From positions 3,849,726 to 3,913,725 of the forward strand of contig NC_090211.1 of NCBI RefSeq assembly GCF_033026475.1: a stretch of DNA of 64,000 nucleotides, written 5' to 3'. Shown here piece after piece: positions 1 to 47,280 of this stretch. Position 1 is the first letter of the stretch; each line of letters starts with the position of its first letter. The translations under genes were made by a program, and so were the position numbers. This DNA is from Channa argus. Its lineage: Eukaryota. The notes under the pieces are model-generated. The model was not told the origin of the DNA. It was given only the letters and a program-made list of their open reading frames with translations, and searched no databases.

Positions 1-956
1 ATGGCACATTGAAAAGATCTTTTTTTGGATGTCCAAAGACATTCTGAGTCAAAATACAATTATAGACAATGGAAAATGAAATTATAGCTAGGCAAAATGT
101 AATTACAGATATCTTAAATCACAGTTTTGACAATTGATATATACTTTGCAGATATCTGTAATTTCAATTAAGTCCCTCCAATTAATGCTTCAAAGGTCTT
201 GACAAAGTGATGTTTTTTAACACCTCAGGAATGAGGTTGGGCTGTACGCTCTGCTTCACAGCTGAGAAAAAAATGATTTTCTAAGCTAATCTCAGCTTGT
301 TCCCTAAACCTGTCCCCCTCCCAAAGTGACTTTTTGGTAGAAAATCCTTTTTTTAAAATTGTTGGTCTGGATCAATTAACAGCACAAACAAGCTGTAAAA
401 ACGAGTCTACATTTGGTAAGGGGGGATCACATGACCTGACACCCCCACATCTACCACAGATACTACAAAAACAACAAAACATTTTATAAAATTGATGATC
501 TTTGGTTCGAAATTCTATTTGGCAGGAACTAACTTAGTGCTAACATTAGCCTACTGTGTGTGTGAGTGGGACATTAGCTTGATGTCCATATGGTGACAAA
601 CAGCAAAGGCACAGAAGCTTAACCCACCAATGTCATGCAGGTTATTATTAAGTATTATGTGTGTAATAATCATCCTGCTGAGCAACTGATCCTGGTGCTG
701 TTTGGATACTAACTGCTCTGATTAGTTCCACTCCGTAAATGGGTGTTTCTTGAACTTTTACCTCTTTACATTGTTTTTCAGATTATAAAACTAGTCAAAT
801 ATTTGCTAAACGTCTATTACCTGATCCACCACCTCCTTCTACTTTTCACATGTACTTTACCCACTACAACTCACCTGAAACCACCTGACAGGAAGACACT
901 GAAAACATGACAGTCTACAGTGTATCAGGGATCAAATGAGATCCTGAAAGGGAAAA

Positions 957-1060
957 ATGAGACCATTCTCCATGAAATGCACCTTTCTCCTACTGGGAAC
1001 CTGCTGTTTCATCATTTTTACTTTTTTGTACGGACTGTGCAACAAGCTGATCTCCAACAG
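957..1060 (+). CDS. st6galnac2-like: Gene A exon 1 (ST6GalNAc-I/II-like sialyltransferase): ATG, cytoplasmic tail and signal-anchor transmembrane segment MRPFSMKCTFLLLGTCCFIIFTFLYGLCNKLISN; ends in phase 2 at donor ag|gtaggt
   Basis: ATG in reasonable context (aaaaATGa). A hydrophobic stretch follows a short N-terminus, as expected for a type II Golgi glycosyltransferase. Canonical GTAGGT donor. Paralogous exon at 12426 has the same donor and flanking intron sequence. Confidence 0.8.
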
Positions 1061-1342
1061 GTAGGTGGGCTGTAATATCACTCCAGAGTTTGGGTTAGTA
1101 ACCTGAACCGGAAAATATTTGTTTAACACTAGACTAAATGTTTATAATAATGTTTATAGGAAAATAATGTGAGCCACAAATGGCAAATAAAACATATGAA
1201 GCTTCGTACTAAGAACCCAATCTTAGTAGATTAGAAATAATTATAATATTAAAGGTGATTTCTTATATGAATTACCTTTATCAGATTTACTGTCTTATTT
1301 ACAAATCAAAGTTAAACTAAGTATATTTGTATAATTTAACTG

Positions 1343-1550
1343 GCTGAAAGGTCCCTGGGTTGAATCCAACAGCTGACTGCAGTCTTTCTGTGTGGAGTTT
1401 GCATGTTCTCCCTTGGTTTGTGTGGGCTTCCTCCATTACGTCAGTTTCCTCCCACAGTCCCAAAACGTGCATTTTAGGTTAATTGGTGACCCTGAAATTG
1501 CCTTTAGGTGTCAGTGAGTCTGTCTGTTTGTGTACGTCGTCCATAAAGAG
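1343..1550 (+). mobile_element. Fish SINE copy (family B: core tgtgtggagtttgcatgttctcc...gtttcctcccaca...gttaggttaattggtgac...aaattgcc) in intron 1 of gene A
   Basis: The same core is found at 37598..37925 (+) and 61303..61586 (-). Confidence 0.7.
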
Positions 1551-1608
1551 ACTTTAATGTTATGGCTGTAAGTTTTACCGGAGATGTCTGACGGTGTTGT
1601 CATGACAG

Positions 1609-1699
1609 TGAGCAGACAGAAGGTGGCAGCATCAAACCTCTAAGTGAAGATCAGGTGAACTGGACAATCATCTCAGCAGCACAACCAGAAGAAGACACG
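1609..1699 (+). CDS. st6galnac2-like: Gene A exon 2 (stem region, SEQTEGGSIKPLSEDQVNWTIISAAQPEEDT); acceptor acag|, donor acg|gtgagt
   Basis: Open in the phase demanded by exon 1 (phase 2 in, phase 0 out). GTGAGT donor. The 3' end aligns to the paralogous exon at 12918..12981. Confidence 0.65.
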
Positions 1700-2656
1700 G
1701 TGAGTGTTTCTTTTCTTTTTCTGCGGTGGATGCAGCTGCTTTCTAGCATCCAACTGTTTTGCCCTCTGACAATGTACGTAATGACAAATAAGTGAATTAC
1801 AGAAAAGCACATGCCAAGTAAATGGTAAAGGCAAATACTACTTAAAAATGGAAAAAGTACATTATATACAAAATGAACACAGTGCAGCTGATGCTTTAGT
1901 TAAAGTTACCTCAAAACCTCTGCTGACACTGACGTAGCTCCTAGGATCACGTGTATTAATACTGATTTGTCATAATTAAGACTATTAAGGCCCAACATGC
2001 AGATCATCTCAAACATGTGGACTGGGTGCATGTGTAGAAAGGGGTCTACTTTATGTACTTACTATAGATCAATGTTTCCTCCAGAACCTTCAAAGTTCCA
2101 GTGATGGCTCTGGCTTATTAAAGCTGCTCTTATTACAATATTGACATTCATTTATGTAAAAGTTTGTCTCGGTGCTGCTAATGCAGCTTGTTTTCATGAA
2201 TCCCACTTTAGCAAATTTCACCTAGAATGTGATTAGACTTAAAGTAAACAAAGCCAAAAATGCAGCTGAGGCTCATAAAATACTTCAACAGTTCCGCTAG
2301 TCTTTTAAAGTAACAGCGTATTTTAGACAAATTTGACGGTTTCTGTGTTTTCTGAGTTGAGACAGAGGGAGATCCTCCATCCTACAAACAGCACTGTAAT
2401 TGTTGCTTTGCAAAAGATGCATAGTTACAAACATGAACCGTATAGTCTAATTTTCAGAAGAGTTTATGTAAGAGTTTGGATGAAAAGACTAACAGAACAA
2501 ACACAAAGAGCCTGTAATAACGATCAAAACAGACATCCACACATAAAAATGGATATTTCTAATCAGAACAACTTCCGAAACCAGAACCATACAGTGCCTT
2601 TAAATAACTGGAAATCAGACTTTTCCCTTTCCGTCATGTTGAAACAGACGCTGCAG

Positions 2657-2828
2657 ATAGAAGCTTCTTGTTCTCTGAGGAAGGCAGTGAGAAACGATCC
2701 TCTCTTCAGGAAGAGCTTCAGGTTCTCGGTACCAGTCCTTCAGTGGATGGGAAGCTTCAACAAACCTACCTGGGAAAATCTGAAGAATGACGCACCTCCA
2801 TATGGCTGGAAGGGACTTCCTATTGATG
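2657..2828 (+). CDS. st6galnac2-like: Gene A exon 3 (stem, ...FRFSVPVLQWMGSFNKPTWENLKNDAPPYGWKGLPID)
   Basis: Acceptor ctgcag|ata, donor gatg|gtacac. By recall the peptide aligns with the human ST6GALNAC2 stem (FNLSIPVLLWGDLFTPALWDRLSQHKAPYGWRGLS). Near-identical paralogous exon at 14068..14239. Confidence 0.8.
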
Positions 2829-3173
2829 GTACACTGCAGGGCCCTGATCTTAATACGCTGATAACTCTGTTATCCTGGTCTGACTGTTAACAATTTAGGA
2901 ATTGTTGTCACACACAAATCCAGGCAATCCAATCCAAACCTAAAGCCAAAATAACACGAACTGGGAATCAGCTTGTAAAACTTGAAAATGCACTGGGAAA
3001 AACTATTAAGACTCGCAGTCTGTCTCACTGCTGCATTACTGTTGTCACTCCATACACCAAACCTAAGACACACGCAAGTGTCATCATGGGCTCTTCTATA
3101 CACAGTAAGTGAAGGTTCATTTACAGCTTGCGATCGGATCTGTAGTTCAGGAAACTCTCTGTTTCTTCTCCAG

Positions 3174-3327
3174 TTGTCGAAACGACCCTCTCCCTCCTCA
3201 ACAGCTCCCGGCTCGTTCAGCGTGGCTTACCTGACAGGTGTGTTCGCTGTGCTGTCGTGGGAAATGGAGGCATCCTCCGAGGATCCAAACAGGGAAAGAA
3301 CATTGACAGCCACGACTTTGTCTTCAG
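3174..3327 (+). CDS. st6galnac2-like: Gene A exon 4: sialylmotif L ([52 protein letters not shown])
   Basis: Carries the L-motif C[12 protein letters not shown]...ID.HD.VFR that defines sialyltransferase family GT29. Acceptor tctccag|, donor cag|gtgagac. Phase is consistent with exons 3 and 5. Confidence 0.9.
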
Positions 3328-4324
3328 GTGAGACTAAAGACACTTGGAGCCTCCAGACATTTACACAGCGCTCTTTATACATCATAGCATAGTTAAATTA
3401 AATAAGTTATTAGGCCAGTAACTAAAATTAAATAGTGCCACCGAATGAAAACCGATTTGGCAAAAGTGCATTTTGTTTTGCAGAATTGCAGATGTTATAT
3501 TAAATAACCTTTTTAAATTGTATAAACTCTTTACAATTTTATCAGTTTCAAGTTCTACAATCATAAGTTAATTTGAATTGTACAATTGTACGATTGTTTT
3601 TGAAACTCGTCACATGATTTAGAAATGATAACTGACTCTTACTAAGCACAGAAAGCAGATCTGAGTTAAATGAACAAGATAAATTAAGAAAAGTAAATTG
3701 GGATGGAGTTTCTAACTTGGATTAAAGGATGACACAAGGCTCAGAGCTCAGATTTCATATTTGTGAGGATGAAACATGTCACCTGGTACAGAGCTGTTTA
3801 CATTTCACTTTTCCCTGATGTGGTTTTAATAATTTTTGAAAAGGTTGTTGGCACAGACAAAGAAACTAAATTAGTTTGAAAGAACGGATGAAAATTCTAG
3901 TTAGTGGATGCAATTCTTTGCTGGTTTTAGTCTCTGTATTGGAAAAGCTGAAAAACAAGTGACCTCATGCTTTAAGCTGACAAATAAAATGTTTCTAAAT
4001 TGAAAAACTGAAATAATTACCATTTCTGAACTTTGTTGCTTTGTTGAGTTTCGTTAACTCTTATCATTATTATTTTCCACTAAAGTGAAAAAATTAAATT
4101 GCCCAATGTTTCATATTTAGGGTAACTAGGTTTAATTTAAATGGAGAGTTTAAAAGTCTATTCAAATTGAGATCATTACTGCAACATTACTGGTAAAACC
4201 CACGACCCAAAAAACTTAGTAAACTTTAGTATATTAAATTAGTTATAGTTGAAGGCACATTTTGTGTTTTACTATTATCATTCATTTTTGGTTTAAAACT
4301 TACCACTATTTCCTTGATCTCCAG

Positions 4325-4463
4325 GGTGAATGGAGCAGTGATCAGCGGTTTTGAAGAAGATGTGGGTACAAAGATTTCTTTCTATGGTTTTACTGTAAAC
4401 ACCATGACACATGCCCTCAGATGGTACAAAAAGGACGGTTTTACCAAAGTCCCTCAGGGCCCG
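4325..4463 (+). CDS. st6galnac2-like: Gene A exon 5 ([47 protein letters not shown])
   Basis: Matches the human ST6GALNAC2 segment [28 protein letters not shown] (recalled). Acceptor ctccag|, donor ccg|gtgag. Confidence 0.9.
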
Positions 4464-4561
4464 GTGAGAAATATTGAAACAAAGTGCTGAGATGTTTTAT
4501 TCTCCTCGTCCGAGTTTATTTCTCTCTGACTGACTGTAATTTGTAATTTCTTCCTGTGCAG

Positions 4562-4665
4562 GACATAAAATACATCTTCATCCCTTCAGATCTCAGAGAT
4601 TATGTGATGTTGGACGCTGCTCTTCAGGGCCGGACTGTCCCATCAGGCAGAGACAAGGGGGACAA
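4562..4665 (+). CDS. st6galnac2-like: Gene A exon 6 ([34 protein letters not shown])
   Basis: Matches the human DLQYIFIPSDIRDYVML...DKGD (recalled). Acceptor gtgcag|, donor aa|gtgagc. Ends in phase 2. Confidence 0.9.
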
Positions 4666-5095
4666 GTGAGCTTCTTACATTCAGCAGCTGCAAAGAGATC
4701 AATGATTATTTATCGAACTTAACCCAAAATGAAGAACCAACATATAAATGTAGACTTTACTGCTTATAATTACATCATATCAAATATTAATCTATATTCC
4801 AAACTTCAGAGCATCAACAAGGTAACAAGTTTAACATTTATGTAAACAATAACAGTCTAAATTGAATCACATTCACTTTTTAACCAGACTGCCTGATGGT
4901 AGGTGGATATTTTCCGCTAATTTAAGATAATGTAAGTATTTCCTCCCTCTTACTCTCTGTCATGTAACTCTGTTCATGTCTGTTCTTGGCGTGTAGGATG
5001 GTGAAGGCCCTCAAGATTTTGTGAGCTTTCTTTATCACGAGGTTATAATTTTAGTTGCTATTGTTGTTTATCCACATTTTGTTTTTCATCAACAG

Positions 5096-5176
5096 ACCCT
5101 GGAATTATTTTGGCCACAAAACACCTGACAGCTTCAAGATTCTCCACCCCACATTTATTGCCTATGTGACAAAAAG
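5096..5176 (+). CDS. st6galnac2-like: Gene A exon 7 (KPWNYFGHKTPDSFKILHPTFIAYVTK)
   Basis: Acceptor caacag|, donor aag|gtaaag. Frame is open and consistent with neighbouring exons. Similar to the human FKLLHPDFISYLTERF segment (recalled). Confidence 0.85.
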
Positions 5177-5294
5177 GTAAAGGACCAGAGTTTTAGTTTC
5201 TTTTTTTTTCTTTTTTATTTAAACTGAGCTCAGGCCTCTGAGTATATGACAACTTATTATTGTTGACTGAGTTCTTTTTTTTCCCATTTGTCAG

Positions 5295-5397
5295 CTTCCT
5301 TCATTCTCCTCAGCTGACCGACGTCAGGACTCGCCACCTGTACATGCCAAGCACTGGAGCTCTGATGCTGCTGACCGCCTTACACACCTGTGACCAG
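5295..5397 (+). CDS. st6galnac2-like: Gene A exon 8: sialylmotif S N-terminal half ([35 protein letters not shown])
   Basis: [19 protein letters not shown] is identical to the recalled human ST6GALNAC2 S-motif. Acceptor tgtcag|, donor cag|gtgatg. Confidence 0.9.
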
Positions 5398-5444
5398 GTG
5401 ATGTGTGACCACACAAACACACATTCCCAACTTTTTGGAGATGT

Positions 5445-5600
5445 GTTGCTGTCATCAAATTAAAAGTGATCTAATATTTTCCATGAAATGGCAAATATCT
5501 CAGTTTCAACATCTGATATGTTGTTGATGAGATTTGCATTCAATTTTTATTTAAGTTTACACATTCTCCCAACTTTTTTGGAATTGGGGTTCTAACTAGT
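5445..5600 (+). mobile_element. Solo terminal-repeat fragment of a Tc1-like DNA transposon in intron 8 of gene A. No counterpart in the gene B intron.
   Basis: About 150 bp similar to both ends of the Tc1-like element at 57682..59150 (ccatgaaatggcaaatatctcagtttcaacatctgat...ttttggaattggggtt). Confidence 0.6.
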
Positions 5601-5794
5601 TTATTTAATTTATTGATATAATTAAAATATCAACTTAGAACCTGTGACTACTTACATTTGATCTTTTGAAAATTGTAAACCTCACAACAGCCCTTAACAC
5701 TGATTACTGTCCTGTAGATGTCCCGTGTTTGCAAGCGCAAACCGGTTGGCACTTGAATCACTGAAGCACATTCTTTTTGTCTTCTACCCTACAG

Positions 5795-5974
5795 GTTTCT
5801 GCTTATGGCTTCATCACCAGCAACTACGCAGCATTCTCCGATCATTACTATGACTCCAAAAATCAGCCCCTAATATTCTACGCCAACCACGACCTTCGCA
5901 TGGAGAGCCATCTGTGGGAGGCTCTGCACCTCCGGAAGGTCATCAAGTTGCAAAGAAGGAACAAGGGAGACTGA
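5795..5974 (+). CDS. st6galnac2-like: Gene A exon 9 (last): [59 protein letters not shown], stop TGA at 5972..5974
   Basis: Supported by the ORF track entry 5777..5974. Carries the VS/motif III region HYYD and the conserved [11 protein letters not shown]. Acceptor ctacag|. Confidence 0.9.
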   Translation, partial: VSAYGFITSNYAAFSDHYYDSKNQPLIFYANHDLRMESHLWEALHLRKVIKLQRRNKGD

Positions 5975-7989: not shown

Positions 7990-8135
7990 TGTTGGCCACT
8001 CTTCCTGCGCAAGACACTGGATCCCCAACAGCCCATCCCCGCGCAGCACCGTTGCCAAGCCCCGCAGAAATTGGGGAGGGCACCCGGCTTGAAAAGTGTG
8101 CCAACCCTGAACTCAAAGGATAAGCTGAAAAAACA
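7990..8135 (+). mobile_element. SINE family A, 3' partial (core ...cccaacagcccat.ccc...gaaattgggg.gggc...tgtgccaa...ccctgaactca..ggataagc)
   Basis: Homologous to 47018..47280. Forms a tail-to-tail inverted pair with the next element. Confidence 0.6.
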
Positions 8136-8196
8136 AGTCTTTTGCAGGTGAACCTTTTATTTATGTACAGTTTTGAGTTGTTGTTGTTTTTTGTTT

Positions 8197-8425
8197 GTTT
8201 GTCCGCATATTGATTTGGCACAGTTTTTACGCGGATGTCCTTCCTGACGCAACCCTCCTCAATTTCTACCGGGCTTGGACCAGCGCTGCACAGATGGGGA
8301 GGGGAATGGGCTGTTAGGGGTTCAGTGTCTTGCCCAGAGACACTTCGAAGTATAGCTGGGGCCGGGGATCGAACCACTGACCCTATGCCTTTACTGCCTC
8401 TACTGCCAGAGTAGGACGGGCTTCT
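8197..8425 (-). mobile_element. SINE family A copy, minus orientation (tRNA-derived head ggggccggggatcgaaccactgaccctatg on the reverse strand)
   Basis: Near-identical to 44110..44412 (-) and, on the opposite strand, to 47018..47280 (+). Confidence 0.7.
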
Positions 8426-10739: not shown

Positions 10740-11160
10740 TGGGTTGCAGATTGCAGTGTCAGGCCCACAGCTGTGCAGCTGGAAACAGTGGGAGCAGCCA
10801 GTGACATAACCTATAATGCCAGAAACAATGGGGGTGTTTCAGTATGCCCCCAGGCTTGGTCAGGTGGGTGTAGGTGTGGTGGAGCAGATGAGTGATGATA
10901 TCATCCACTTCAAGTTGAGGATGGTCCAGGTGATCTGGACTTGAAGTATGAGTTTGACCAGGGTCCAGACCAGCCTCTCAAAAGCCTTAGAAATGTGTGA
11001 AGAAAGTGCCACTGGTCTGTGGTAATGATGGACAGCATGGAGGGTCTGGATCAGTACAGCTTCGCCTGTCTGTTGGCCCATTTTTTTTAATCCATCCATT
11101 AATCTGAAAGTTAGTAATGAGGTCATTAGGTCACATGTCATTAAGTTACATGACACCTCA
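10740..11160 (-). mobile_element. Degenerate retroelement (LINE-like reverse transcriptase) fragment
   Basis: The minus-strand ORF 10860..11156 contains ...DISKAFERLVWTLVKLILQ..., reminiscent of the RT F-x-D-x-x-KAFD motif region. Weak. Confidence 0.3.
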
Positions 11161-12425
11161 CTATGTTGGACGTGTTGCTATTTGCCTATAACATATAGTC
11201 TATGGTCCTGACATCTTGCTGTTCGTGCTGTTTTGCAGATCTTATGTTATTGGATTCTCATGGTTCCAGGTTCAGTTTCATTTACACATAAACATTTAAA
11301 TCAAATCAATTTAAAAATTTAGATATTTTTATAAACCAACCACCTGATCCTAAACACCAGCAAGACAAAGTAGTTGGTGATGCTTGTATCCAAAGTGACT
11401 TACGCGTGAGTTATAAGGCAGCAAAAATCTAAGTTAAAGAGAAAACCATCAAAGCAAAGTCCTATCAGAAAAGTGTTCACATTTCATGAGATGCAAGTGC
11501 AAGAAAGAACAGAAAGGTGATATTTATTTATTTATTTTTTTAAGATAGAACAAGTTTAAGTGCATAGGAGAGTGTGGAAGAGTTTTTTTTTTTAATATTG
11601 GGAGTGAGTTTGCTGAGCGTGCAGAGTTTGGTAGCTCGTTCCACCATTGTGGGATGATGCCGCATTTTAGATCATCTGCAAGGGTTTGATTGTGGATACT
11701 GGTAACCCCATTAACAAAGTGTTGCAGTAATCAAGACGGGATACGACCAGCACCTTTAGAATGGGTTGGGTTGTGTATTTAATGATGTAGGGTCTGATCT
11801 TTGTAGAGGGCAAATTTGCCTGGAGACTGAGGAGATGATGTCCATCGATGAGTGGGGACAATCACTGTAGATCCAGTGTTGATGCAGATGTTGTGTAGTG
11901 TTGAAGGTCTATCTGTGAAGATAAGAACTTGTGTGCTGGGAGGGTGGCAACATGGACAGACGGGATGGGACTCAATAGGCTGGTTGAGAGGGCCGGCTCT
12001 GTCCTGGGCTGCCCACTCGATTCCATCGAGGAGGTGGCGGACAGAAGGATATTGGCCAAACTGACATCCATGTGTATGGTTATTATGGGAGAAACATTCA
12101 TGTCTGTTCTGTAACTTTTTTGTGCTGTTGCTCAATGTCTGTTTAGGTGAGGGGTTAGAGCAAATATCTTATCTGATTAATGTGTGGTGCATAACTGATG
12201 CTTGTCTCTTCTCTGCTGGAACCCTGGAATTCCCCCGTTGTGGGATCAATAAAGTCTAATCTTATCTCATCTTCTTTTTTCAAGGACAGTAAATGCTTCC
12301 GTTTTCATTTTTTTCACCTAGTCGACTTCCTCCTGCTGTATTTTCCTGGATTCACCTGAGGACAACGCTTATAATGTGATGATCTATATCAGTGATTGCA
12401 CTGTATGAGTATCTGAAAGGAAAAA

Positions 12426-12514
12426 ATGAATCCCTCCATGAAATCTACTTTTCTCCTACTGGGAATGTGCTCTTTAATCATTTGTACTGTATACAACAAG
12501 CTGATCTCCAACAG
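12426..12514 (+). CDS. st6galnac2-like: Gene B exon 1 (tandem paralogue): MNPSMKSTFLLLGMCSLIICTVYNKLISN; 5 codons shorter in the transmembrane segment than gene A
   Basis: ATG and signal anchor present. Identical donor to gene A exon 1 (ag|gtaggtgggctgt), with a homologous intron start. Confidence 0.75.
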
Positions 12515-12917
12515 GTAGGTGGGCTGTGATGTCACCTGATAATGTTATGATGCAATTACATTTAAATATTCACCTGCTGCTCCAGAGTCTGGGTTAGTAA
12601 CCTGAACCAGGAAATTTTAGTTTTAAAGTAGAATAAATGTTTCTATTCAGTAGTTGTTTCAGATAAATAAGGATTGTTTGAAGTTGTCGAACAGACACCA
12701 AAAAGTCCTCTAACTTTAATGTTCAGAGATGTCGTTTAGAGGCCCTGCTGATTGGTGGACAGGGGTCAACATTGAAAAAAATTTATGTTGGCCACGATCA
12801 ACAGGTGTCAGAAGAAACATATATAAATGTCCATGCTGACTCCTGTCCATCACAACATTAAAACCACCAGGTGGCATTAATGTTCCGGCTAATTTATGTG
12901 TATTAAACCTTTTACAG

Positions 12918-12981
12918 AAGCTTCGTCACCTCAAGTGACTTGAACTTGAAAACCACATCAGCAGCTCAGCAAGAAGATAAA
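12918..12981 (+). CDS. st6galnac2-like: Gene B exon 2 (stem, RSFVTSSDLNLKTTSAAQQEDK); 27 nt shorter and strongly diverged from gene A exon 2
   Basis: Acceptor tttacag|, donor aaa|gtgagtgtttcttttc, which matches gene A's gtgagtgtttcttttc. Phase 2 in, phase 0 out. Confidence 0.6.
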
Positions 12982-14067
12982 GTGAGTGTTTCTTTTCGTT
13001 TCCTTTCAAGCTATAGGTGCAACTCCTTTGTCTCATTCACTGATTTAATCCTTTAACAATGTATACATATTGATACCAAATACCAATAATACATCTACAG
13101 TAAATATATAAAGTGCATCAGAGAAAAGAACATGCAATGTAGTGAAAGGCAAAAAATGAAGTAGAATTGCAAATAAATATGCATGTTGCATAAACACACA
13201 TATGGTTGATATTTCAACTACGGTACATTGTGTGTCCTTGGAAAAATTAGGGAAACCAAAAACATATTTCTATACTTTCATATCATTACATGTACCTGAC
13301 ACCAAGGCAAGCAATGAAGATAGGAAAAATGGAAAAATCAAATCATAGTCACAGTTGTCATTTTTTACATATAGTCAAAATGGCATGAAAGCAATCCTGC
13401 ATACTGAAGGTGATTGATCTCAAAATAAATTCAGAGTGTTGCCATTGTTTCCACTTATGTTGTGGAAATGGTATTTGGAAAGTATTGAAATCCCTTTAAT
13501 TTATGCACTTTTAACTGCATTAATAATTTTATTTGATATGGAAAACACCCTCATTTATCATGAAATAAAACACATGAACACAACACATTTTAAACATGTT
13601 TGAATTCTAAATATTGTCAAGCCAATTTGTGCTAGAAATTTACAATTGTCAAAATAACTCATATTTCAGTATAATACATAAAATTGATTTCCTCACATGT
13701 AGAAGACCGCAAAAATTTTGTCTGGATACATGTGTGCTCTTTTTTTTTTCAGCTCTTTTTTCCTTTCAATCAGTTTAAATTCCAGAAACCTTTAATGGCC
13801 AAAGAGCAACAAAGCTGCTGAACCAGTTCTCAAAAAGTCTATTCAGTATGTTGACTTTGTGCTTACTGTACTTGGTATTACCATCGTAATGAATTAATAA
13901 CATCTCCTTGGGCTCCTGTTTAAAGTGCATGAGGCGGTTTTCAGATCAGAAAAAAATATTCACACACAGACATTTTAGCTAAAATCTTACACTTAAAATA
14001 TGAATAACTGAGCCAGCCTGTTTCTCTGGACACTTTTTTCCAGCTTTAAACCTGTGTTTTTGTGCAG

Positions 14068-14239
14068 ATAGAAGCTCCTTGTTCTCTGAGGAAGGCAGTG
14101 AGGAATGATACTTTCTTTAGGAAGAGCTTCAGCTTCTCAGTACCGGTCCTTCAATGGATGGGAAGTTTTTTGGAATCAGCCTGGGAAAATCTGAAGAATG
14201 ATGCACCTCCATATGGCTGGAAGGGACTTCCCATTGATG
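14068..14239 (+). CDS. st6galnac2-like: Gene B exon 3 (IEAPCSLRKAVRNDTFFRKSFSFSVPVLQWMGSFLESAWENLKNDAPPYGWKGLPID)
   Basis: Identical length to gene A exon 3 and about 90% identical. Acceptor gtgcag|, donor gatg|gtacac. Confidence 0.8.
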
Positions 14240-15177
14240 GTACACTGCAGGGCCCTGATCTTAATACATGGAGAACTCTGTTATTCTGGTTTCAGTTGAT
14301 AATTTGACATCAACAGACATGATTGGTTCTTCCAATTCTTTAAACCCAAACATAGAAAAGTTTACTGTCAGTGAACTGGCCACGTATAATTCACAGTATA
14401 TGTTGCTGCTGCAGTTCATTGCAAGGTTTATTAACACACAGCCTGGTAGGATAAATCTTTGAGCCTGAGTTCAGAGCAAACAAAGTTGCCAGGAAACCGG
14501 TGATAGAGGACTTTACCTGGGAGTGAAAATGTTTTATTCATCAAATATTAAATTGCAAATTGCACCCTATAGCACCATATTACAAACTCGGCCAGAGTTA
14601 CAAACAGAGGTCAGAGCCTAAATCTTTAGCTACAAACAAATGTGATCATTTCTCTTTAACTAATATTCGGGTACTTTTCTTCATACATATTTAAGGTTAA
14701 ATGGAGTGAAGTTGGATTTCTAATCTAATTATTTAATTATTTGAGGCACCTGCTCACTCTGGTGGTTGAATAGACCATGTTGAAATTGATTTTACCTTTT
14801 CAGAAAAACTGATTCTGCTGAAGGCTTTGAGCAATATAATGATGTTACATTCAGACGTGATTCGTCAAAAGTGGCAAAAATACAGAACGAAAAAAAGCTG
14901 CCTGACAATTAAATGTACTTCATTAATGGCACCACAAATGCACATTCATTGATAGACAGAGAATTATTTGTATAATCTGTGCATAATAATTAGAACGACT
15001 ATAAGCTGATCTGAGTTTGCGAGTTTTGAGATATGTTGCTTAAAGACATTTGAAGAATCAACAGATCTGGATCATGTCTTATCATTTACTTTATTTTCCA
15101 GCTAATCCATGCATGAAGAATAGAGCCCAAATGTCCAGGTTATGTAACTTTGTCTTCTTTTCCTCTTTCTTCTCCAG

Positions 15178-15331
15178 TTGTCAATTCGACCCTCTCTCTC
15201 CTGAACAGCTCACACCTCTTTGATCATGGCTTACCTGACAGGTGTGTTCGCTGTGCTGTTGTGGGAAACGGTGGCATCCTCAGAGGATCCAGGCAAGGGA
15301 AGGACATTGATAGCCATGACTTTGTCTTCAG
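15178..15331 (+). CDS. st6galnac2-like: Gene B exon 4: sialylmotif L ([52 protein letters not shown])
   Basis: L-motif is intact. Same length and phase as gene A exon 4. Confidence 0.85.
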
Positions 15332-16516
15332 GTGAGACCGAAGACAACTGCAGCCTCCACATATTAAGTCTGATTTATGTATTTTTTTTAGAATGCATAA
15401 GACAAAATATTAGGCCTAAATTATGAGCATCTAAAATCAAAAGATGATCTTGCACCACTAAATCAATATAGTATGTCCTTTGGTTCTGCAAAATCACTTA
15501 TATGCACGCTTATTTATTTAAAAAAAATATTTATTTATTTATGTACTTATTGTTAAAAAAGTTGTTTTCTGAAATCGCATTATGTTATTTGGTTGTACTG
15601 TCCAAATGTTAGTCTGTCCTTTTGCCCCATCCTTGTGACGGCAATATCTCAGGAATACCTTGTCACAAATGTCCAGTTGGGATGAACTGATTAGACTTTG
15701 GGGGTCATAAGTCAAGGTAACTGTGGTTATCAAGGTAATTTCTCATCAATCTATCACTCTATCTATAAAAACAAAAAAGTCTGGATGAAGTTAAGGGAGC
15801 AGCTATAGGAGCTAAAATGCTTGATGATCTCATCAGGATGTTTCCGATGTTAGCAACTTTATCACAAAAAAAACTGAGCAAACTGATCACATTTTTTTTA
15901 CTCTAATATATTTTTTTTATATAGTGCTAAAAAGCAAAGAGGCATTATTTCAATTGTTAGTAATTAAGTAAGAAATATATGATTAATTTGAAGATTTCAT
16001 GTTTCTAATTTTTAAAAAAAATATCCATTCTTATATATTTGTGTAATGTAAAATATACTTGTAAATGTGTTTTGTTTTCAGCATCTTTTTGTTACAGTAT
16101 TCCCTTGTTAGGCTTTTGGTAACCCACTGATTTATTTAGATTTAACTGTTGCAAGACAATTATTCAAGATAATGTATTAATAAATTATCCACCATCATGC
16201 TACCTGATGGCAAAACATAATCTTTCTGTATTTTTGTGCTTATACAGACCAGATAGAGGTTTAGTCTCTCAGTTGGTAATAAGGTAGATGTGGGAATGAT
16301 GCTAAGAAAATTAAAAAAAAAAAAGATAGAAAATAAAGAAACTAACTGAGCAGTGGTTTTATTAAAGAGTGAAACTTTGTAAATAGGCTTGTTATTCAAG
16401 TTAAACAAAAATGAATAGTTTCCAAATACAGCACCAACACAGCGGCAACAGTAGAGGAAACTGCTTCCTGTAGTCTTTTAAAAATCATTTATCACTTGTT
16501 ATTCCTTGGTCTCCAG

Positions 16517-16655
16517 GGTGAATGGAGCAGTGATCCGAGGTTTTGAAGAAGATGTGGGTACAAACATTTCTTTCTATGGTTTTACTGTAAACACCATGAC
16601 ACATGCCCTCAGATGGTACAAAAAGGACGGTTTTACCAAAGTCCCTCAGGGCCCG
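16517..16655 (+). CDS. st6galnac2-like: Gene B exon 5 ([47 protein letters not shown])
   Basis: About 98% identical to gene A exon 5. The downstream 97-nt intron is identical to gene A's intron except for 1 nt. Confidence 0.85.
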
Positions 16656-16753
16656 GTGAGAAATGTTGAAACAAAGTGCTGAGATGTTTTATTCTCCTCG
16701 TCCGAGTTTATTTCTCTCTGACTGACTGTAATTTGTAATTTCTTCCTGTGCAG

Positions 16754-16857
16754 GACATAAAATACATCTTCATCCCTTCAGATCTCAGAGATTATGTGAT
16801 GTTGGACGCTGCTCTTCATGGTCGGACTGTCCCATCAGGCAGAGACAAGGGGGACAC
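16754..16857 (+). CDS. st6galnac2-like: Gene B exon 6 ([34 protein letters not shown])
   Basis: Near-identical to gene A exon 6. Donor ac|gtgagc. Confidence 0.85.
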
Positions 16858-17352
16858 GTGAGCTTCTTAAATTCAATAGCTAAGATCAACACTTATTTAT
16901 GCTATTTAACCCAAATTAAAGAACCAACATGTAGACGTATTTTACTGGCGATAACTATGCTGTTATCTAAAAAAAACCAAAAAAACAATGATTTGTATTG
17001 CACATTTCAAGAGTAGAGAATCATTAAACTGCAAAACAAGGTAACAAATTAGAATAACTCAAAACAGCTTTCACAGCCTATCAGTTTTTTAACTTTTTAA
17101 TCCATAATATCCATAATATCTGGATATGTAATGTATGGAAAAAAGGACCATGATTTGTCATGTAATTCTGTTCTTGGCCTGTGGATGGGGATGAACTCCT
17201 TAATTATTTCGTGTGTTTCCTTTTTCTTTTCTTTTACACGTTTTTTTTAAATAGAAGTTGCTTTTCTTTCTCCTGCTTGTTGTTCTCTTATTTGGCTTAT
17301 TATTGGAACATTTTTAAGTAGTTGATGTTTATTCACATTTCGTGTCCAACAG

Positions 17353-17429
17353 ACCCAGTATTTTGGCCACAACACATCTGACAGTTTCAAGATTCTCCAC
17401 CCAGAATTTATTTCCTATGTAACAAAAAG
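17353..17429 (+). pseudogene. st6galnac2-like: Gene B exon 7 homologue is 77 nt against 81 nt in gene A. The net 4-nt deletion near the acceptor (accc-ag-tattttgg vs accc-tggaat-tattttgg) shifts the frame: read in the phase delivered by exon 6 it hits TAA at ...cctatgTAAc. Exons 8 and 9 downstream are intact.
   Basis: Direct alignment of the two copies. No alternative AG acceptor within about 12 nt restores the frame. Confidence 0.6.
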
Positions 17430-17549
17430 GTAAAGGACCAGAGTTTGTTTTGAAAAATGACGAGAGGCCTCTAAATTTAAGTCCAGGTGTTGTGAACAGC
17501 CACACAGAAAGACTGAGTTTCGTCTCTGCATTTTTTATTTATTTCTCAG

Positions 17550-17640
17550 CTTCCTTAATTCTCCTCGGATGACCAACAACCTGTATATACCGAGCACTGG
17601 AGCCCTGATGCTGCTGACCGCCTTACACAGCTGTGATCAG
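17550..17640 (+). CDS. st6galnac2-like: Gene B exon 8: S-motif ([30 protein letters not shown]), 3 codons shorter than gene A
   Basis: Acceptor tctcag|, donor cag|gtaata. The S-motif is conserved. Confidence 0.75.
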
Positions 17641-17646
17641 GTAATA

Positions 17647-17690
17647 CAAACACACACACACACACAAACACACACATTCTCTCTCTCTCA
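17647..17690. repeat. (CA)n followed by (CT)n compound microsatellite in gene B intron 8
   Basis: Direct reading. Confidence 0.9.
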
Positions 17691-18247
17691 ATAAGTTCAC
17701 CATAAACTGTTATGAAAAAAATAAAATAAAATGTTTAGTACAGTGCTTAAAGCTACAATATGCAGCTTAAGTTGGTTCAAGATTTTGTTCTGTCACTTGC
17801 TCTACTACACCCCACCACGCTCTTCCCAGCACTACAGGTAGTTATAAATATCAATATTAAATATCAAAAAATATCAAATCATAATTTGTTTTATTTTAGC
17901 AAGCAAATAATCAATAATGAATCAATCTAAGTTAATTTATAGTCATTCAAAATTTTACCTAACTAAATATAGAAAAAAAGAAGGAACACTACTATACATC
18001 CATAAATCCAAATAGATTATTTATAAAAATATATACGCTTTTAATAACTGCACCACATTCCTAACAGTCATGATGTTTTTATGTTTTTTTGTTTTGTTTT
18101 GTATCAAACTGATCCAGTAATTGTTGTCACACTGCAGAGAAACTTTGAAAATCACAGTTTTGTAAAAACTGGATACAATACAATACAATGTAAATACTGG
18201 AGGTGAAGCTTGTGAATCACTGAACCACACTGTCATCTATCCTAAAG

Positions 18248-18427
18248 GTTTCTGCTTACGGCTTCATCACCAGCAACTATGCAGCATTCTCTGATCATTA
18301 CTATGACCCCAAGCATAAGCCCCTCAAATTCTACACCAACCATGACATGCAGATGGAGAGCCGGCTGTGGGAGGCTCTGCACCTTCGTAACATCATGAAG
18401 TTGTATCAGAGAAGCAAAGACAAGTGA
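18248..18427 (+). CDS. st6galnac2-like: Gene B exon 9: [59 protein letters not shown], stop TGA at 18425..18427
   Basis: Same 180-nt length as gene A's last exon. The acceptor is weaker (ctaaag|). VS motif conserved. Confidence 0.75.
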
Positions 18428-18610
18428 GGAGACAGGGGGGGTATGATAAATATGATATATCATTTTAAGTGTTTTTGTTGACTTTTTCTTAGAAATATAT
18501 TAAAAAGTAAATTATTTTTGTCAGTTTTAAAATGTACTCTCATGCTCAGCTGTTATATTGGATTGCATTGAACAGAAGAACTCAATGAAGAGCCTAGTGT
18601 ATGTTTAGAT

Positions 18611-19044
18611 CAGGGGTCTCCAACCTTTTTGTCCCCTGAGAGCTACTTTTACAAAATGATCTATTTATTGTCATATTGTATTTCGACGAAAACCAACTGA
18701 TAAGCCGTTGTCCACAACTCACGCTGCTCGTTGAGAACAGAGAGAACGATACGTGTTGTGACGTCAGAGTCTCCAAAAGTCTCTAATAGAAAACCAGAAA
18801 AAGTCGCTAGATTTGCTATTACTCGATTCTTAGAGGGGTCTTAATACTGGCTACGTGTAAACACTGACTCATCAAGCTTGACAAATTGTCGAAGAATCCT
18901 TTATGTAAGAAGGGGGCGGGACACTTATGAATCTGATATACATTTAAGTTGGTTTGAGAACTTAAATTTGACTAATCAAATTTATGTAGGATTCATTAAC
19001 CCTTTTGGAGAGTTACTGCATGAGCAGTGTGGTGGAGACCCCTT
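18611..19044. mobile_element. 434-bp non-autonomous DNA transposon (MITE), hAT-like: terminal inverted repeats CAGGGGTCTCCAACC / GGTGGAGACCCCTT flanked by a perfect 8-bp target-site duplication GTTTAGAT (18603..18610 and 19045..19052). Sits 184 bp 3' of the gene B stop.
   Basis: The TIR and the TSD are both visible in the sequence. An 8-bp TSD and a CAG.. terminus are typical of the hAT superfamily. No transposase ORF inside. Confidence 0.7.
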
Positions 19045-22000
19045 GTTTAGATATATTCAATATATAAAGGTAAAAATGAAAAAAGTATTTCAAATGCAAA
19101 ATTGGACGACATATTTTTGTTGAATTGAATTGATGTGTCTATGTAATGTGAAAGTTGTCTGTATTAAAACCTCCAGAGATTTGTTATCAATTAACTGCAA
19201 CTTTAATAAACATTTTAGCCTTGCTTGGCTCCTTGTTTTATTTCTGCAGCTCATTTACTGTTTTTGTCACAGAGACAAAAAAAAAAACTTAAAAAGCCAC
19301 TGAACACAAACAGCAGACAGTCGACTGTTGACTGCATGTAGCAGCTGACGAGTCAGATATTTCCCTTAGTCGCCTATACAGCTGCTGGATGTGGAATTTA
19401 GCAACTTGATTTCTTGTTATAGATGTTTCACAGACTGCAAGTGGTCAGAAACACAAGTAAATTAAGTATATTGGAAGACAATTATGTACAAATGCAATTT
19501 CTAGCACCAGTGGTGATCCTGGAGTCTGTAGGGGCAGAAATGGGAAAAAGTATTGTCTGCGTTAGCTGATTATTTGCAGCCTGCTAGCTAAGCTAACAAG
19601 CAAAGCTGTAACACATAAGTTAGCTGAGTTAGCTCATGTTAAATGTTAAAATAAACAAGACACAATGCGGAAGCTCTGTTATTTAACTGTCCCTTCACCA
19701 CAATTGCAGCTACATTGGCAGCATTTAGCCAATGATACATAGTTTATTATATTTAATCGTCATTATCTCAACTGCTCCACTTACCGCTATCTTGGTTTTC
19801 TTTGGTCCTCCCGCTGTTCTTTTTTTTTACTCCGAGAAAGATAACTCCTCTTCATCTTTATGAGCGTGTTTTCCTTGTTTCATTAGACCTGTTTATTCAC
19901 ACTGAATCGTGATCTACTTGTAACAGAGTTAGAGTAGAGTTAGCGCCTCTGTCAAATATAGCGAAAAATGTAAATTAAAAGAGAATACAACGATGAGACC
20001 CATTTTTGATTCTAAATAGCATATTAACAAAACCTCTTCCAGATACAGATTTATACTGCAGTCCTTCAATGATGGTCACTACACTGTGTGAGTTTTGTAA
20101 CGAGTTGGTTGAACAAGCAATAATTAAGCGGAGTTACTTTAAAGGGGGTTAATCTTTATACAATCACTGATTTTTTTGGTTTTTTTATTTTTTTTATTAA
20201 TTTAGTTTATTTAGTCGAGGCATGTTCCCACTTTGTCAAATTAAAACAAATAAGATTTACGTTGGAAAAAGGTTACACAATTCTGTAACAACTGTTGTCG
20301 TTTTGAAGTTTGTTTTAAACTTTAATTTATTATTTGTATGCAAACTGGTATACATATTATATGGTGTTGTTAATCATATTACTGTGTCATGTTACTAGGA
20401 CTGTTGTATTTTGATGGTTGGTTTATTACAATTCCTTGAATTAATTTTTTATATAAACTGGTATGCTGATTTTTATTAGTTTTTCAAACTATTCTCTTAA
20501 TTTGAAATTCTCAAATGATCAGGTTCTTTTTGAAACCATTTATTAGTGCCTCAAATAATGATTATTAGATGTTTTTGTTAAGGTAAAATAAATGGTTATT
20601 TAAAGAAGGTTTTTGGAAGGTTTGAGGCATCTTTAAATGCTCTTTAAATGACTTGGAGAAGGCAGCAGTATTTCTGGTTTGTGTTCATACACTTTTTTTT
20701 TCATGGTAGGGTCCTAACTTGCATTTGTGGATAGAGCAGGAAACTGACAGTTATTTTCAGAGGTATTCCTGAGCCCATGCACTTATTTCCACTACACAAT
20801 TAGGACAGTTTTTGATGCTGCCTGAGGGTCCAAACGTCAGAGCTATCTAGGAATGTTTTTGGCCTTGTACCTTGCGTTGTTCTTGGTTTCAGGATGTTTT
20901 AGATATGCTATTAGGTATTTACTATAGTGAAGAAATTAAACCTTCTCCAGAGGCATTGAACATACATTTTATGTATTATTGCACAACTGTATTTCCCACT
21001 GGAATTTATAAAGTTGTCTGATCTGATGTTTTCAGAGTAGTGAACTTTGCTCCATGCTTAGTTGTGGCAGACTCAGCTTCTCTGAGATGCTCCTCTTATT
21101 CCCAGACACAATTAACCTCCTTAGTTCTGAGATGTCCCACCATGTTTTGTTGCCCGAGTCAACTTTTAATTAAAAAAGAGAAATGAGAAACATTAAAAGG
21201 GTCATCAATTTTGTTAACTTACAACAAAATAGCAAAACCTTAGATGTGAAACACTATAATATCCACTCTCATTGAATTCTGAGTGAAATATGATAAAACA
21301 TTTAAAGGCACATACTAGAAAATCATTCGATAATATACTCAAAACATGCAATAAAGATTTAACAAAATGCGTAAAATAAGGCAAAATAAACAGTGACTTA
21401 TACAAATAATGTATGACTTCATCCCATAAAGAATAAAAGTTTCTAAAATGTCCATCAAGTAGAAAAGGTTTTGATTATTGCAAATAAATGTGCGGTAGCC
21501 TACTACATGACAGATTTACACTTTCATAATTTTGTTTTTGTAAGTACATGGGCTACATAAAGGTTTAAACTGACAGTTACAGTAACTGTTCTGAAAAGAT
21601 GTTTGTTTAGAGCTGGATACTTTTTATGATTTGTAATAATAATTTATCATTTAACGAATCAGTATTATTCCAGCATAAAACAGTGGAGAGACTACTTTGG
21701 AAAATAAACAACACAATGAATCCGTGAATGTATGAATGATTTGTGCACAAAGTCGTGAGCTAAAGTGTTAACAGTGGATTTTGTGAACCGCCAAAAATAC
21801 ATCTTGTTTTGAAAGTCTCCGTCGGATGTTGTATGTGGTGTGTTCACGGCACCTTGACACCGTCCCAACATTTTCGAAATCAGCGGAGAGAGTGTGGCAT
21901 TTACGGCGAGGAAGGAAAAGCTGATAGAGAGGTGACTAACGAAGTGTAGTCTAAAGTGTAAGTCCTAAAACTACATACATCTCCTATGCTAATTATGCAA

Positions 22001-44109: not shown

Positions 44110-44412
44110 GTTCGATCGCAATTTCTGAATTCTATTAAATCTCATGTAGAATCCCGTGAGTTCAGGGTCGCCACAGCGGATCATTGTCCGCATGTTGATT
44201 TGGCACAGTATTTACGCCGGATGTCCTTCCTGACACAACCCTCACCAATTTCTACTGGGCTTGGACCGGCACTGCACAGTTTGGGAGGGGAATGGGCTGT
44301 TAGGGGTTCAGTGTCTTGCCCAGAGACACTTCGACATATAGCCGGGACCGGGGATCAAACCACTGACCATGTGGTCTGCGGTCGACTGCCTTTCCCAACT
44401 GAGCTACAGCAT
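44110..44412 (-). mobile_element. SINE family A copy (minus). Head reads gcaatgctgtagctcagttggg...ggtcagtggtttgatccccggtcccggc on the reverse strand.
   Basis: About 90% identical to 8197..8425. The spurious ORF 44098..44421 lies inside it. Confidence 0.75.
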
Positions 44413-47017: not shown

Positions 47018-47280
47018 ATCGTCCACGGATCATAGGGTCAGTGGTTTGATCCTCCAGTCCCGGCTATATATGTCAAAGTGTCTCTGGGCAAGACACTGAA
47101 CCCCCAACAGCCCATTCCCATCCCCAGCTGTGCAGTGCCGGTCCAAGCCCAGTCGAAATTGGGGTGGGTTGCGTCAGGAAGGGCGTCCGGCGTAAAAACA
47201 AAAACTGTGCCAAATGAACATGGCGACCCTGAACTCACGGGATAAGCCGAAAGGACAAAACACAAAAACAAAAAAAAAGT
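47018..47280 (+). mobile_element. SINE family A copy (plus). With 44110..44412 it forms an inverted pair 2.6 kb apart inside caskin2 intron 1.
   Basis: Reverse complement of the 44110..44412 and 8197..8425 elements. The spurious ORF 47038..47319 (-) lies inside it. Confidence 0.75.

Follow-up and report, generated by a model that had tools for sequence, protein, structure and literature searches.

Two tandem ST6GALNAC2-like genes

The window analysed here, a 64,000-nucleotide stretch of a Channa argus chromosome, contains two homologous genes arranged head-to-tail on the plus strand between positions 900 and 18,500 (Table 1). Self-comparison of this region finds at least seven conserved blocks, which extend from about 936 to 5961 in the upstream gene (copy A) and from about 12405 to 18417 in the downstream gene (copy B). 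By spliced mapping, the protein P0002 (XP_067332214.1 / KAK2893354.1) is the exact product of copy A, and the same nine-exon mapping bears out the exon numbering of a preliminary description of this DNA.

Several lines of evidence bear on the identity of the two genes. Copy A matches Pfam PF00777 (Glyco_transf_29) over profile positions 5-271 of 272 (E=8.5e-70) and the human ST6GalNAc2 structure 6APJ over residues 70-374 (E=3e-116). In a protein-collection search, nearly all named proteins among the top 120 matches, drawn from fishes and tetrapods, are ST6GalNAc2 or SIA7B, and the two top matches are from Channa argus. Both copy A and a frame-repaired copy B align end to end with human ST6GalNAc2 (CAZy GT29; PDB 6APJ/6APL), carry sialyl motifs L, S, III and VS as vertebrate ST6GALNAC2 does, and have the nine-exon structure conserved for ST6GALNAC2 in other fishes. 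The synteny also agrees with that of other fishes, with MXRA7 on one side and a CASKIN-like gene on the other: an MXRA7-like gene lies upstream in C. argus, and in C. argus, C. striata and Anabas the downstream neighbour is an ankyrin/SAM Caskin-like gene. Thus, both genes are tandem st6galnac2 copies of the ST6GALNAC2 type, a type that the preliminary description had not named. ST6GalNAc I and II sialylate peptide O-linked GalNAc (PMC10225777).

Correspondence with the annotated genes of the three comparison loci (L001, L002 and L003) places the MXRA7-like gene just upstream of the window, and the start of the large ankyrin-repeat/SAM (Caskin-like) gene at about 25200-64000. A repeat of about 190-380 bp is found downstream of copy A (8005-8387) and again at 44184-44368 and 47031-47222, with 84-91% identity; these two further copies lie in opposite orientations within the downstream gene region, and the repeat is probably an interspersed element.

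Table 1. Features of the two ST6GALNAC2-like genes, in window coordinates.
Feature	Position	Strand	Remarks
Copy A, intact ST6GALNAC2-like gene	957..5974	+	9 coding exons; P0002 spliced mapping
Copy A exons 1-5	957-1060, 1609-1699, 2648-2828, 3174-3327, 4325-4463	+	
Copy A exons 6-9	4562-4665, 5096-5176, 5295-5397, 5795-5974	+	
Copy A exon 7	5096..5176	+	81 nt; reference for ancestral length
Copy B, frameshifted ST6GALNAC2-like gene	12426..18427	+	introns all GT-AG
Copy B exons 1-5	12426-12514, 12918-12981, 14068-14239, 15178-15331, 16517-16655	+	
Copy B exons 6-9	16754-16857, 17353-17429, 17550-17640, 18248-18427	+	
Gene-conversion tract	16502..16947	+	common with copy A 4310-4762; exon 5, intron 5, exon 6, start of intron 6
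Internal AG, copy B exon 6	16787..16788	+	acceptor in GenBank model KAK2893355.1 (P0001), forcing open frame
Copy B exon 7	17353..17429	+	77 nt; 4-nt deletion between 17356 and 17357
Internal AG, copy B exon 7	17383..17384	+	exon start 17385; sole acceptor restoring frame with normal exon 6 donor
Premature TAA	17420..17422	+	98 nt upstream of last exon-exon junction
Copy B exon 8	17550..17640	+	91 nt vs 103; in-frame 12-nt deletion just upstream of motif S; motif S intact

A four-nucleotide deletion in exon 7 of copy B

The gene structure of copy B is well preserved. All of its introns (8/8) begin with GT and end with AG; the normal frame is open through exons 1-6 and the ancestral frame through exons 7-9. 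Exon 7 reads cag/ACCCAGTATTTTGG...ACAAAAAG/gtaaag (slashes mark the splice boundaries), and, as the preliminary description had stated, it is four nucleotides shorter than its counterpart in copy A. The alignment of the two exons contains a single gap of four columns after ACCC, so that ACCC and the gap are followed by AGTATTTTGG in copy B, against ACCCTGGAATTATTTTGG in copy A. Because exons 4-9 have identical sizes (154, 139, 104, 81, 103 and 180 nt) in C. argus A, C. striata A, Anabas testudineus and Toxotes jaculatrix, the 77-nt exon is the derived state.

In both copies, exon 5 ends in phase 0 and exon 6 is 104 nt long, with its last two bases opening a codon. Carried into copy B exon 7, this phase gives ...GRDKGD-TPSILATTHLTVSRFSTQNLFPM and then the TAA that the preliminary description had reported, 7 nt short of the exon 7 donor; adding the 91 nt of exon 8 gives its 98-nt distance from the last exon-exon junction. 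The canonical product of copy B is 263 amino acids long and matches PF00777 only over positions 9-157 of 272 (E=5.5e-35). The DNA of copy B still holds all four sialyl motifs. However, motifs S, III and VS lie 3' of the frameshift and, under canonical splicing, are out of frame with motif L, whereas copy A encodes all four, the catalytic histidine included, in one reading frame. The histidine of motif VS is the catalytic base of GT29 enzymes (PMC10225777).

Exons 8 and 9 of copy B had been described as intact and open. They are indeed open and carry motifs S, III and VS, but exon 8 is not full length, owing to a 12-nt deletion specific to C. argus B. We considered this deletion, which removes RTRH beside motif S, as a sign of decay and rejected it, as the loop varies in both length and sequence among 116 orthologues. 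Programmed ribosomal frameshifting was likewise set aside on sequence grounds, since the A CCC AGT around the deletion is not a slippery heptamer.

The deletion in a second assembly

If the four-nucleotide gap were an assembly or sequencing error, the true gene would be intact. We therefore turned to an older C. argus assembly, GCA_004786185.1 (locus L001), which, like the C. striata assembly GCA_033026295.1 (locus L002), was reached via members of the copy A protein cluster. The older assembly is collinear with the window at 99.6-99.8% identity, and it is base-for-base identical over 15749-18350 (~2.6 kb), the 77-nt exon included. Yet it differs nearby: the 9 kb from 11000 to 20000 of the window contain 8 SNPs and 5 indels, and the older assembly carries a 2.4-kb insertion (11012-13467 of its locus) in intron 2 of copy A, at window position 1965, where the window has none. 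Because of these SNPs, indels and the insertion, the two assemblies are different haplotypes; their chromosome sizes also differ (23,222,735 in GCA_004786185.1 and 23,711,288 in the window's assembly).

This comparison refutes the assembly indel that the preliminary description had offered as one explanation. Consensus errors in a paralogous region are possible in principle, but we found no support for one here; the deletion site is neither a homopolymer nor a microsatellite, and an independent assembly with its own variants is identical across it. We consider an assembly or sequencing error extremely unlikely.

The 2.4-kb insertion is an insertion polymorphism between the two C. argus assemblies. 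It contains a 653-amino-acid open reading frame with a YADD motif, which reads as a putative reverse transcriptase of a non-LTR retrotransposon (LINE).

Origin of the duplicate and gene conversion

Anabas and Toxotes have a single copy at the ST6GALNAC2 locus, where C. argus has two. In Anabas, the one st6galnac2 gene has the same neighbouring genes and lies upstream of the same Caskin-like gene, and the sequence beyond it shows no remnant of a second copy. In C. striata, the orthologue of copy A is intact, and a second copy lies at about 16640-20470 of locus L002. Over exons 3, 7 and 8, the p-distance separating this second copy from C. argus B is 0.179, as against 0.209 for C. argus A and 0.228 for C. 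striata A, and it has B-specific states in common with C. argus B. As C. striata B is closest to C. argus B in these exons, the two are orthologous; together with the single copy in Anabas, this dates the duplication to after the split from Anabas and before the split of C. argus and C. striata.

The C. striata orthologue does not have the four-nucleotide deletion. Exon 7 is 81 nt long in C. striata B, as it is in C. striata A, C. argus A, Anabas and Toxotes, and it reads ACTCTGGGACTAT... in C. striata B, ACCCTGGGAGTAT in C. striata A and GCCCTGGAAGTAT in Toxotes. From these sequences, the ancestral C. argus B exon read ACCC(TGGG)AGTAT, with a clean loss of the four bracketed bases in the C. 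argus B lineage. The preliminary description had aligned copy B with copy A (TGGAAT to AG); comparison with C. striata and the outgroups shows that the T in copy A exon 7 is copy A's own change.

C. striata B is heavily decayed by other means. It has a 14-nt deletion in exon 3; exons 4 and 9 are not detectable at the L002 locus; about 40 nt of exon 5 are left; the acceptors of exons 6 and 7 are replaced by AAG and CTG; and exon 8 has deletions of 1 nt and 27 nt, with loss of PSTGALMLL. The B duplicate was thus lost independently, and much earlier, in C. striata, so that it is dispensable in the genus.

The history of exons 5 and 6 is different from that of the rest of the gene, in that gene conversion with copy A has homogenised them recently. 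The segments 4310-4762 and 16502-16947 are 92.9% identical over 453 nt, and a single base differs in intron 5. In these two exons, C. argus A is separated from C. argus B by a dS of 0.038 and from C. striata A by a dS of 0.37; in the remaining exons, the dS of C. argus A and B is 0.39. About 400 bp lie between the end of the tract and the four-nucleotide deletion downstream of it. Since in exon 6 each species' B copy resembles its own A copy, the sequences point to independent conversion in both Channa species. Exons 5-6 are homogenised in C. striata too (L002 12196-12299 against 19688-19785), though its B copy is long dead, which suggests a local hotspot of gene conversion between gene and pseudogene.

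Within exon 5, residue 205 of P0002 (window 4400-4410 and 16590-16600) is threonine in all three Channa sequences, C. argus A, C. argus B and C. striata A (NTMTHAL), and lysine is invariant at this position in 116 other vertebrate ST6GalNAc2 sequences. The change from lysine to threonine is snakehead-specific and older than the duplication.

Selection on copy B

If copy B had long been free of constraint, then its dN/dS should have moved toward 1. Outside exons 5-6, the Nei-Gojobori comparison of copies A and B gives dS 0.39 and dN 0.109, a dN/dS of 0.28; for exons 7-9 alone, dN/dS is 0.36. We then assigned changes to branches by parsimony with C. striata A, Anabas and Toxotes, leaving out the converted exons 5-6. 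On the B branch, 24 changes are synonymous and 17 nonsynonymous (dN/dS ~0.2), and the A stem and C. argus A branch together have 15 synonymous and 24 nonsynonymous changes. About 70-78% of changes are expected to be nonsynonymous under neutrality, so that the binomial probability of 17 or fewer in 41 on the B branch is 4.5e-7 to 1.4e-4. Exons 7-9 of copy B, downstream of the frameshift, have 12 synonymous and 11 nonsynonymous changes (p = 0.0015 to 0.021). Thus, relaxed constraint on copy B is not seen in its dN/dS.

The same is true at conserved sites. At 149 columns that are at least 80% conserved among 116 orthologues, copy B has 3 private departures (K193N, M302I and T316S) and each intact A copy has 2, so that there is no meaningful excess in copy B. 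Copy B has no second disabling lesion. We interpret the low dN/dS of copy B as reflecting the recency of the lesion, rather than as evidence of function: copy B was constrained, and presumably functional, for nearly all of its history, and too little time has passed since the deletion for the neutral phase to show. A strong signal of purifying selection is also what one would expect of a gene in current use, and we weigh this reading against the splicing evidence below.

The exon 9 acceptor of copy B (18236-18247) is ...cctaaag/G, against ...cctacag/G in copy A. As AAG is less favoured than CAG, a slight weakening of splicing here is possible.

Splicing around the frameshift

Copy B could still be coding if splicing bypassed the frameshift, as with the cryptic splice site that the preliminary description gave as a further explanation, through skipping of exon 7, the internal acceptor that starts the exon at 17385, or the exon 6 acceptor used in the GenBank model. 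The resulting mRNA would encode an in-frame protein lacking part of the catalytic domain. To survey such routes, we listed all pairs of GT/GC donors and AG acceptors around exons 6 and 7 and kept those that are stop-free and in the frame of exon 8. There are 16 such pairs, each of which removes at least 11 residues of the conserved core; 15 of them depend on non-consensus donors within exon 6 (for example, ACT/GTCCCA) and lose 11-35 residues. The upstream intronic AGs at -31 and -34 are in the right phase but read straight into TGA, and were discarded.

The preliminary description had held that no nearby AG restores the frame. This proved too strong, as the AG at 17383-17384 makes a stop-free, in-frame junction with the normal exon 6 donor, although only by deleting about 12 residues. 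The acceptor (acatctgacag/TTTCA) has a poor, purine-rich pyrimidine tract, and the product, ...GRDKGDT-FKILHP..., loses P259, Y262, F263 and G264, including the YFG, all of which are invariant or nearly so in 45 orthologues. Skipping of exon 7 also keeps the frame, as the ancestral exon is 81 nt long and exon 6 joins exon 8 in phase. Exon 7 is exactly missing from five annotated fish proteins (P0046, P0049, P0051, P0059 and P0112), three of the five being RefSeq isoforms.

What these bypasses would cost can be judged from the AlphaFold model of copy A (mean pLDDT 76.7). Exon 6 contributes a strand (226-229) and a helix (234-245), and exon 7 a beta-strand (271-274) and a helix (276-286). The blocks of the exon 6 and exon 7 elements have pLDDT 82-93, and those of exon 7 have pLDDT 82-90, so that each splice bypass would remove core elements. 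In addition to the four residues lost through the 17385 acceptor, F271, H275, P276, F278 and Y281 of exon 7 are invariant or nearly so in orthologues. Read in the old frame, copy B exon 7 still encodes every conserved residue, which is what an exon used until very recently should show. In the GenBank model, exon 6 is 16789-16857 by spliced mapping and contributes 23 out-of-frame codons, which replace a conserved stretch, so that the conserved strand and helix are missing. Searches of the protein collection with repaired copy B and with copy B exons 7-9, which have little power, found no transcript-derived Channa open reading frames from A or B.

Collectively, the in-frame exon 6-8 junction, the five fish proteins that lack exon 7, the stop-free junction at 17385 and the dN/dS of ~0.2 over the rest of the reading frame give splicing rescue some plausibility. 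Against these stand the confidently modelled strand and helix with their near-invariant residues, the purine-rich acceptor that sacrifices YFG, the out-of-frame codons of the GenBank model, the intact coding of the old exon 7 frame and the lack of transcripts in our searches, and we judge rescue by splicing unlikely. The narrower proposal that copy B is alive because its mature mRNA always omits or trims exon 7, by the exon 6-8 junction or through 17385, seems to us very improbable. If it were true, the product of copy B would be a sialyltransferase-like protein anchored in the Golgi, missing a core strand and helix and acting non-catalytically, for example as a lectin-like or dominant-negative partner of copy A, and this would account for purifying selection as strong as that on copy A, or stronger.

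Copy B as a probable young pseudogene

Our data are best explained by a model in which copy B is a tandem st6galnac2 duplicate that arose in the snakehead lineage, after the split from the climbing perch and before C. argus parted from C. striata. On the C. argus side, it remained under purifying selection and exchanged sequence with copy A by conversion across exons 5-6, until exon 7 recently lost 4 bp (TGGG) close to its 5' end. Normal splicing would then produce 22 wrong codons followed by the stop, giving a product that is predicted to keep the membrane anchor, stem and sialyl motif L and to lack motifs S, III and VS and the catalytic histidine. With these elements missing, the truncated protein should not be an active sialyltransferase. 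In addition, nonsense-mediated decay usually acts on stops more than 50-55 nt upstream of the last exon junction, and a stop 98 nt upstream should therefore expose the copy B transcript to it. Copy A would carry the function.

On this basis, copy B is probably an unprocessed pseudogene of very recent origin, or a null allele that has reached high frequency, in keeping with the very recent pseudogenisation that the preliminary description had listed among its explanations: there is a single disabling lesion, dN/dS on the B branch is low, conserved sites show no meaningful excess of changes and the deletion is absent from the C. striata orthologue. The protein records also fit this call, in that the searches returned a RefSeq protein for copy A (XP_067332214.1) and none for copy B.

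Could the deletion still be segregating in C. argus as a loss-of-function allele, with an intact copy B allele persisting in the species? The lesion is very young and the gene otherwise intact; only two haplotypes were sampled (n=2), and their identity over the 2.6 kb around the deletion may mean that both represent one common haplotype. However, both haplotypes carry the deletion despite several variants within a few kilobases. We think continued segregation quite improbable. The deletion itself, its occurrence in both assemblies and its absence from C. striata B are read from the sequences, as are the selection signature and the conversion tract; from these we infer that the deletion is fixed in the species, that the transcript is degraded and that copy B has lost its function.

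Copy B is an intron-containing paralogue with a real frame-disrupting lesion, and it resembles other unprocessed pseudogenes of young tandem duplicates in several respects: it keeps its introns, adjoins its parent gene, has a disabling indel and a premature stop, and undergoes conversion with its functional neighbour. It is unusually fresh: a single indel is its only disabling lesion, and its dN/dS has not risen detectably. In C. striata, by contrast, exons 4 and 9 and motif S of the orthologue are gone, along with several splice sites. Sialyltransferase pseudogenes such as human ST6GALNAC2P1 are likewise disabled GT29 copies. The human sialyltransferase pseudogenes are possibly retro-transposed, or remnants of ancestral genes, on other chromosomes (PMC10225777); copy B, unlike them, is tandem, intron-containing and snakehead-specific.

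The loss of copy B is thus an ordinary, lineage-specific and very recent frameshift of a duplicate. The locus is a textbook example of how the pseudogenisation of a duplicate begins, with C. striata showing the end state. It also shows gene conversion still at work between a functional gene and a dying copy. Its biological interest is modest, and the main value of the analysis lies in the correction of annotation.

Public protein models at the locus

Three public protein records at these loci are artefacts of gene predictors working around the lesion, and they should be excluded from, or corrected in, counts and alignments of fish sialyltransferase genes. The GenBank model of copy B, KAK2893355.1 (P0001), matches PF00777 over positions 9-270; given its forced exon 6 acceptor, it is a predictor's workaround and not evidence of function. 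The C. striata record KAK2832919.1 / A0AA88M9J5 (P0122; L002 10001-25472), 491 amino acids long, fuses the A orthologue to out-of-frame exons of the decayed B copy, and its C-terminal ~130 residues are not real protein. The third, KAF3699685.1 / A0A6G1QAV9 (P0121; L001 10001-29890), is a chimera in which A exons 1-8, the second of them aberrant, are joined to B exon 9. The B part shows a Q-to-R polymorphism, an A to G change at window position 18351.
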